Assembly (NCBI GenBank): GCA_964016885.1
Contig: OZ024740.1
Coordinates: forward strand, 414,594,001-414,658,000
DNA from: Eledone cirrhosa
Lineage: Eukaryota
DNA length: 64,000 nt
Direction of reading: 5' to 3'
Part shown: positions 50,666 through 51,326 of the stretch, one piece after another
Layout: each line of letters starts with the position of its first letter
Position numbering within the stretch: position 1 is the first letter of the stretch
Made by a program: the position numbers and the translations under genes
The notes under the pieces: model-generated
The model's database searches: none
Seen by the model: the letters and a program-made list of their open reading frames with translations, nothing else
Told to the model about the DNA's origin: nothing

Positions 50666-51322
50666 TAATAAAGTATATATCCCTACACGCAAAAAGCGTC
50701 TAGGGACACATGTATTGTCCAACCATATGCCAATGTGGTTCAATGGCAGGTTAATAAATTAACGAGCCAGAACATATATAATCAAGGTTTAGCAAATAAG
50801 AAAAAGCTTCAAAATAAATTTTTAAAAATTCACTGTATCATATATGTTCTGGCTCGTTAATTTATTAATCTGCCATTGAACCACATTGGCATATGGTTGG
50901 ACAATACATGTGTCCCTGGACGCTTTTTGCGTGTAGGGATATATACTTTATTATTATTATTCTCCTCTTGGTCGAGATAAAATTTGGTCGTTCTGACTGC
51001 TGCTATTTATAGTGGTAGTAGACTGACCTCCCTGCCTCTGCTTCTATCTTTACACACTGCACTGGACAGAATTGCTTCCACATCATTCATTCTCATCTCG
51101 GGAACAATTTTGAATAGCGCCAGTTCGTAATTTGAACTCGGGAATTTTATATTCTCCGAGTGAAAAGAACCTTCTGACGAGAGTTTATCTTTTCAATGGA
51201 AGGTCGCAAGGACATTCCATTTATTTTTGAGACTCGAAACCGATTCGGTAAAGGTAACCATAGTGAGTACAGTGAATTTTAAAAAATTTATTTTGAAACT
51301 TTTTCTTATTTGCTAAACCTTG

Positions 51323-51326
<4 letters not shown>
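50666..51326 (+). mobile_element. Hammerhead element H1: ~487-bp monomer preceded by an inverted copy of its tail-to-head junction
   Basis: 50666-50779 is the reverse complement of 50840-50953. 50780-50837 is the reverse complement of 51268-51326. Confidence 0.85.
51169..51255 (+). ncRNA. Type I hammerhead ribozyme with extended stem II
   Basis: acctt-CTGACGA-gagttt...agactc-GAAA-ccg-att-cgg-TA-aaggt. All three stems pair, and the predicted cleavage is after GUA at 51250. Confidence 0.88.

Follow-up and report, generated by a model that had tools for sequence, protein, structure and literature searches.

The repeat described here lies in a 64,000-nt stretch of the Eledone cirrhosa genome (contig OZ024740.1, hereafter the window). 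We interpret it as a two-armed insertion of a non-LTR retrozyme, mobilised in trans by an RT/GIY-YIG protein of the Hydra clade of Penelope-like elements, from a circular RNA monomer, and give this reading a probability of roughly 0.65. The element itself is of an expected kind. The initial annotation had seen in its tail-to-head junction the footprint of a circular or multimeric RNA; the conclusion of a circle is plausible, but the junction, the reason stated for it, does not establish it.

The genome (3.0 Gb) is abundant in (TA)n, and the element stands between two such runs (Table 1). It consists of one full unit, with a GC content of 37% and a longest ATG-initiated ORF of 39 aa in the dimer, and of an inverted arm, in which the tail-to-head junction falls between 50780 and 50779. 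This arm matches 51268-51331 at 62 of 64 positions and unit 1-115 at 98%, and differs from the plus copy at two positions in unit 1-115 and at two in unit 429-486. The monomer and its opposite-strand junction had been placed correctly to within a base: the unit measures 486 nt, instead of ~487, and ends at 51325, position 51326 being already TA repeat and outside it. The plus-strand copy, as had been claimed, lacks the junction, since it begins at this very point (50838-50840). The inversion point was spanned by no listed contig piece of two sequencing runs; the same inverted layout was found in 26 of 70 position-sampled loci, and is therefore no assembly quirk of one spot. A look through sequencing runs for the unit listed no RNA run containing it. 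Target-site duplications are unreadable at retrozyme loci, because the flanks consist of (TA)n.

Table 1. Features of the retrozyme insertion and of the Penelope copy in the window (positions are those of the window).
Feature	Position	Strand	Remark
(TA)n-rich target microsatellite, left flank	49739..50664		
Inverted arm	50665..50837	-	Unit 429-486 fused to unit 1-115; tailed B end in (TA)n
Bulged hairpin, second copy, on inverted arm	50738..50773	-	
Full non-coding repeat unit, 486 nt	50840..51325	+	Plus arm; tail-less A end at 51325 enters (TA)n
Tail segment between two inferred reverse-transcription starts	50840..50954	+	Unit 1 to about 115; from arm-end counts
Bulged hairpin GYUCUG...CAUWGARC, common to Hydra-type Penelope elements	50846..50881	+	Candidate protein-binding signal
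Second tail hairpin, just before B end	50910..50942	+	Predicted fold; hairpin at same place in 6/6 tails folded
Type I hammerhead, long stem II, near-palindromic stem III	51169..51255	+	Predicted cleavage between 51250 and 51251
(TA)n-rich target microsatellite, right flank	51326..51570		
Truncated autonomous Hydra-clade Penelope copy	58998..62482	-	5'-truncated, separate from retrozyme; candidate driver type

Several other repeats occur in the window. A near-perfect palindrome between TA runs (51867-52126; arms of ~105 bp when the TA ends are discounted, separated by a 7-nt spacer) may be a MITE or represent two inverted ends of some other TA-targeting element. LINE copies, presumably RTE-like, were observed at 41397-43848, 46651-49725, 52506-53556 and 55368-56510; one is nearly complete with two in-frame stops, and they end in short ATG repeats next to the retrozyme. 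A tRNA-like match at the gathering threshold (35058-35121, minus strand), with a similar stretch in locus L129, is probably a SINE head.

The unit belongs to a large family. A DNA search with it returned 2,683 first-look candidates, the best 40 of which are 96-100% identical, and an exact 17-mer of its A end has 2,690 matches in the genome (control, 0). Tandem units are spaced by 483-486 nt (486 in locus L016) and form arrays of up to 8.84 units, while sister families of the same layout, also with ~485-nt units, are 73-86% and 61-64% identical. Partial relatives of the unit were also present in contigs from a sequencing run of a second organism. Tandem units, a type I hammerhead in each of them (by pattern and covariation), the non-coding character and a GC content below 50% are the genomic criteria of non-LTR retrozymes, and by them the element is almost certainly a retrozyme copy.

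The copies might instead be the 3' ends (pseudo-LTRs) of an unsampled ORF-bearing Penelope family, a possibility raised in the initial annotation itself. The geometry does resemble that of autonomous elements (hammerhead ~65-90 nt before end A, tail ~100-115 nt), a rare parent could escape searches that cover the top or first matches, and Xenopus retrozymes are reported to be related to pLTRs (bioRxiv 10.64898/2026.07.22.740005). However, the search for tandem copies without a linked RT ORF, which had been recommended, found such copies, and 0 of 208 arms in 144 loci form the 3' end of a Penelope ORF; at the sole locus among the 144 where a retrozyme arm meets an ORF fragment (L049), the two stand head to head. 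No RT plus GIY-YIG ORF between pseudo-LTRs, as in an autonomous Penelope-like element, was found at the retrozyme loci. Arms passing unit 1 always continue into unit 486, the only 5' flanks common to different loci are unit sequence from partner arms, and the ~485-nt unit is kept by several families across 61 to 100% identity. Searches for a parent with a short stem II gave 9 and 21 matches, which are deletion derivatives or other families; those among their loci that were screened with the Penelope protein revealed no hammerhead as the 3' end of an ORF. Locus L111, considered as a chimera with a retrozyme directly behind an autonomous copy, was rejected, a TA run separating the two. A pseudo-LTR origin is thus highly improbable, and the proposed retrozyme-like family, with 2,690 end motifs and no ORF-bearing version in 144 loci, is well supported.

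Further elements were encountered in the course of this survey. A non-coding hammerhead family with a 525-nt unit (L110:1850-2560, minus strand; also L175, L176, L178, L204 and L339) shares the bulged hairpin, has a palindromic stem III of its own and is likely another retrozyme. Short TA-inserting repeats (L206-L209) have ~20 nt in common with the unit just past the cut site and carry a hammerhead-like motif on the opposite strand. Loci L059 and L060, ~370 kb apart, agree in 5' end, flank and a rare variant, and probably represent a DNA-level duplication.

The hammerhead of the unit was the sole match of a hammerhead scan of both strands of the window, a scan which misses the minimal hammerhead at 59082. 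Stem I pairs ACCUU with AAGGU, the core reads CUGACGA...GAAA, and cleavage is predicted after GUA; stem II comprises 55 nt with an 8x8 internal loop, and the near-palindromic stem III has 4 bp. The hammerhead had accordingly been placed correctly, the description "fully paired" being slightly generous in view of the internal loop and the short stem III. In a 105-nt fragment the active fold (-22.8 kcal/mol) lies 3.2 kcal/mol above the minimum (-26.0). An Rfam search gave no hammerhead match at the gathering threshold or at E<=10, for which, as a guess, the 55-nt stem II may be responsible; a MIR841-like match was dismissed, since it merely reflects the inverted repeat. Among 16 hand-picked family representatives, 12 of 21 pairs show two-sided changes, the core is invariant, and stem III, palindromic or nearly so, does not vary. 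Paired cells amount to 90.8%, against 75.8% after shuffling (0 of 500 shuffles as high) and 31-53% in slid controls, which are lenient because the structure was derived from the window sequence. Such strong covariation implies that the ribozyme matters and is presumably under selection. The long-stem-II hammerhead pattern has 3,508 matches in the genome (control, 0), and those listed span several families. The circular fold of the unit is stable (z -5.4 and -2.7, 40 shuffles) yet branched, and was dismissed as evidence for a circle.

The ends of the arms were examined in a position-ordered sample, the first 100 of the 2,690 end-A matches in chromosome order, which gave 70 loci and 99 arms. Sixty-two arms end at A (unit 486/6), 30 at B (unit 104-125) and 7 elsewhere, and one tail-less and one tailed arm are combined (A+B pairing) in 22 of the 26 inverted loci of the window subfamily and in all 10 inverted loci of a young sister subfamily. 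The same pairing was observed in 21/21 inverted loci scored for an ORF-bearing Hydra-clade family of the same genome (element ~5 kb, tail mostly 101 nt; one arm was scored by eye, and a 22nd pair, at L111 and outside that scoring, looks A+B). The retrozyme hence has the features of Penelope cargo, namely two 3' ends bracketing a tail, an inverted 5' arm and a (TA)n target. A Penelope protein is reported to cut and extend both strands in vitro, with cDNA starting at two internal sites that bracket the tail (PMC11167929), and the tail of Penelope elements is described as being often on one end only (PMC8557442). Together with the A+B pairs of the autonomous family, these data identify the window junction as an ordinary Penelope tail, the normal product of a machinery with two start sites. 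The junction demands a template that reads through it, and is silent on whether this template was closed. Its interpretation as a circular footprint is not supported, because the ORF-bearing element shows the same tail in every inverted pair scored. Nor would a circle be proved by reads running from 51326 into 50840: tandem copies already contain this junction as DNA, and the closure of a circle made by the hammerhead would lie at 51250/51251, two neighbouring bases of the genomic sequence, so that reads across the 486/1 junction are not diagnostic.

A candidate type of driver is found in the window itself. The truncated Penelope copy comprises part of an ORF (61121-62482), a 2.1-kb 3' UTR, a minimal hammerhead (59082-59057) and an A end at 58998. 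Its family has 1,244 exact end motifs in the genome; full-length relatives encode 897 aa, and many open frames extend over 913-963 codons from stop to stop. The 897-aa ORF contains RWR, DKT, CxCX5C, CxxC and CxH motifs, read by eye, and the C-terminal GIY-YIG domain. RWK-like, DKT, CxCX5C, CxxC and CxH motifs with a C-terminal GIY-YIG are given as defining the Hydra clade (PMC8557442), and this match would place the family within it. Pfam gave a weak GIY-YIG match on the window ORF fragment (E 0.0013) and none on the full-length protein. A GIY-YIG query returned 56,271 first-look candidates in this genome, far above the expectation from the few Hydra families reported outside cnidarians.

One bulged hairpin (GYUCUG...CAUWGARC), a helix with a two-base 3' bulge, lies 5-7 nt past end A both in the retrozyme families and in two Hydra families with an ORF. 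Its pattern has 50,708 matches genome-wide versus 568 for the reversed control, and shuffled loci gave 1 match in 1.39 Mb. Among the 100 matches listed, the variable pair, counted by hand, is C-G in 65, U-A in 29, U-G in 1 and mismatched in 5, i.e. Watson-Crick in 94, with many different loops. Global tail alignment was rejected as a link to the window's Hydra family, the tail outside the hairpin scoring no better than shuffles (67.5 versus 66.3 +/- 6.4); the hairpin therefore points to a clade and not to a driver family. Being common to retrozymes and Hydra elements, it points to Hydra as the candidate driver clade, and may well represent a protein-recognition signal. It is very probable that the retrozyme was moved by Hydra-type machinery, so that the suggested mobilisation by a Penelope-like RT is upheld and, by the common hairpin and the A+B pairing, narrowed to one clade. 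Another copy of the bulged hairpin is present in the window at 44743 (plus strand), 93 nt before a TA run, in the tail of a different, abundant Penelope family.

The nature of the template was addressed in the young sister subfamily, which is 78% identical to the window unit and was picked after arrays had been seen in it; all 51 matches of its 19-mer gave 16 loci and 26 arms. The young arms have a mean length of 926 nt, as opposed to 402 nt for the old ones (p 0.0005), 11 of the 26 exceed two units, and the longest reaches 8.84 units with 2 substitutions. Seven locus-private variants, in five loci, are fixed in every pass covering them (15 of the 16 loci have a position read at least twice), three variants common to several young loci are never mosaic within an array, and both arms have the same haplotype in 5/5 informative loci. 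No unit-specific marker was found to recur in another locus. The array-wide fixation of private variants indicates a single-unit bottleneck followed by repeated copying, for which a circular monomer is the simplest source. Each young array is thus likely to derive from one monomer copied repeatedly, and, judging by these variants, the template was probably a circular RNA monomer.

The older loci count against a circle: only 3 of 99 arms exceed two units, and rare variants are mostly confined to one pass, both in tandem pairs (n=66; 15 shared versus 140 one-pass) and in inverted pairs (n=68; 8 versus 143). Moreover, the variants are hierarchical in L016, a locus of the window's own subfamily in which units 1 and 2 have three derived sites in common, and in L278 (sites 224-225 in 2 of 4 passes); these two loci testify to duplication or conversion at the DNA level, or to mixed templates. 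Recombination between units is likely to shorten long arrays with time; the correlation of age and length is weak (rho -0.21, p 0.08, n=71).

The predicted cut site was passed by 76 of 81 arms at the first encounter and by 19 of 22 at the second, so that the templates must have been uncleaved, ligated or jumped across. This read-through fits equally well a linear, uncleaved multimeric transcript, used by the same Hydra-type driver, with DNA-level duplication or conversion lengthening and homogenising the arrays. The hierarchical variants of L016 and L278 and the position of the active hammerhead fold above its local minimum favour such a scheme, and a Poseidon element is reported to have used mainly uncleaved, unprocessed RNA in vitro, the hammerhead being unneeded (PMC11167929). 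A new mutation in a linear multimer would, however, mark one unit only, which the array-wide private variants and the absence of recurring unit-specific markers disfavour. The 66 tandem pairs display no recurrent difference between upstream and downstream units (the top position, 359, being an artefact of gap placement), young arms exceed old ones in length, contrary to growth after insertion, and the strong covariation speaks for a functional ribozyme. We consider a linear multimeric template unlikely. The arrays could also have been copied from a hammerhead-made linear monomer, the RT going back, each time it reached the 5' end, to the 3' end of this molecule, without a covalent circle. End-to-end jumping is known from the RT of R2, and jumping of this kind would yield the same haplotype-uniform arrays. 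In L111 (8299-9033, oriented as the Penelope copy) the upstream partial unit of the retrozyme arm differs by 10% from the downstream one and resembles another subfamily, suggesting a possible template switch. In addition, more 5' ends than expected fall at unit 409-412 (6 versus 1.1, in an interval chosen after seeing the data), but this excess is confounded by TA microhomology and a similar peak exists at unit 404-406 (10 and 9 of 31 family loci at the two peaks, counted by hand from the first 100 of 198 rows, after removal of 4 loci of another family). In score-ranked samples, 5' ends had accumulated near unit 399-437 and suggested that the template ended at the cut site; this idea was rejected when the accumulation disappeared in the position-ordered sample. 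Passes in young arrays contain no indel at the cut site, and substitutions near it only in L339; furthermore, an enzyme jumping between ends should at times land on other RNA molecules, giving mosaic arrays. End-to-end jumping on a linear monomer is therefore quite improbable.

Under the preferred reading, that of a ribozyme-made circle, a locus with two complete hammerheads would be transcribed, and the ribozymes, perhaps paired as dimers by the palindromic stem III, would cleave at unit 411/412. The released monomer would then be ligated into a circle of ~486 nt. The Hydra protein may recognise the bulged hairpin past the junction and cut both strands of a (TA)n run, whereupon cDNA would begin at the two fixed sites found at the arm ends, with site A (unit 486) used on one strand and site B (unit ~115) on the opposite one. 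How far each cDNA then runs round the circle would vary, and the joining of both 5' to 5' would give the inverted pair.

The rolling-circle copying of retrozyme circles by Penelope RTs has already been hypothesised (PMC7229834, PMC7761336); a report of the present hairpin or haplotype evidence for it was absent at the level of listings and abstracts, a coverage that leaves most subscription papers outside. In the parts covered, reviews settle neither the autonomous element behind the mobility of animal retrozymes nor the role of circles as templates of reverse transcription, and conserved motifs pointing to a driver are said not to have been seen (PMC7761336). In the family described here, a candidate motif is common to a named clade, driver ORFs that look intact exist alongside it in the genome, and the variants of its very young arrays are distributed in a way that agrees with a circular template. 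The driver, the template and the role of the Penelope hammerhead thereby become directly testable. Tentatively, and with slightly less than even confidence, the youngest insertions may be seen as records of rolling-circle reverse transcription of ribozyme-made circles, primed twice on opposite strands by a Hydra-clade protein; the hairpin (~50,000 matches, many families) would be a clade-wide recognition signal parasitised by retrozymes, and the same route would regenerate the pseudo-LTRs and tails of autonomous elements. A recognition hairpin shorter than 40 nt, serving a telomerase-related RT with the ability to write tandem copies into (TA)n, would also be of technical interest.

Compared with known systems, the element resembles the metazoan non-LTR retrozymes described from coral, mussel and axolotl (PMC7229834, PMC7761336) in its non-coding tandem units with a type I hammerhead, GC content below 50%, lack of LTR, PBS and PPT, thousands of copies, weak or palindromic stem III and co-occurrence with Penelope elements. 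It differs from those tested (~170-400 nt) in its unit of ~485 nt, a length within the 51-972 nt range given in bioRxiv 10.64898/2026.07.22.740005, as well as in its very long stem II, strict (TA)n targeting and two fixed 3' ends, and it is known from DNA alone; unlike the repeats of PMC7761336, in which no conserved motif is reported, it has a motif common to an autonomous clade. With the Hydra-clade elements of PMC8557442 it shares the (TA)n target, a hammerhead near the 3' end, partial tandems, the inverted 5' arm and the one-ended tail, and with those of this genome also the bulged hairpin and the A+B pairing. In contrast to them, it has neither an ORF nor overall sequence similarity to the sampled autonomous family, and its tail of ~100-115 nt exceeds the 30-40 nt described for Penelope-like elements (PMC8557442). 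Anolis Poseidon (PMC11167929), for which the hammerhead is reported to be dispensable in vitro, likewise has two internal RT starts bracketing the tail and, as it cuts and extends both strands, accounts for the two arms; it belongs to another clade, and its initiation is described as not target-homologous, whereas here both ends lie in TA-like sequence. The Xenopus retrozymes (bioRxiv 10.64898/2026.07.22.740005) are likewise non-autonomous, with monomers, dimers and multimers dispersed in the genome, but are linked to pLTRs by sequence homology, while the link found here is a short structural motif; and their arrays are discussed as local amplification, whereas the young arrays of the present family look as if made at insertion.
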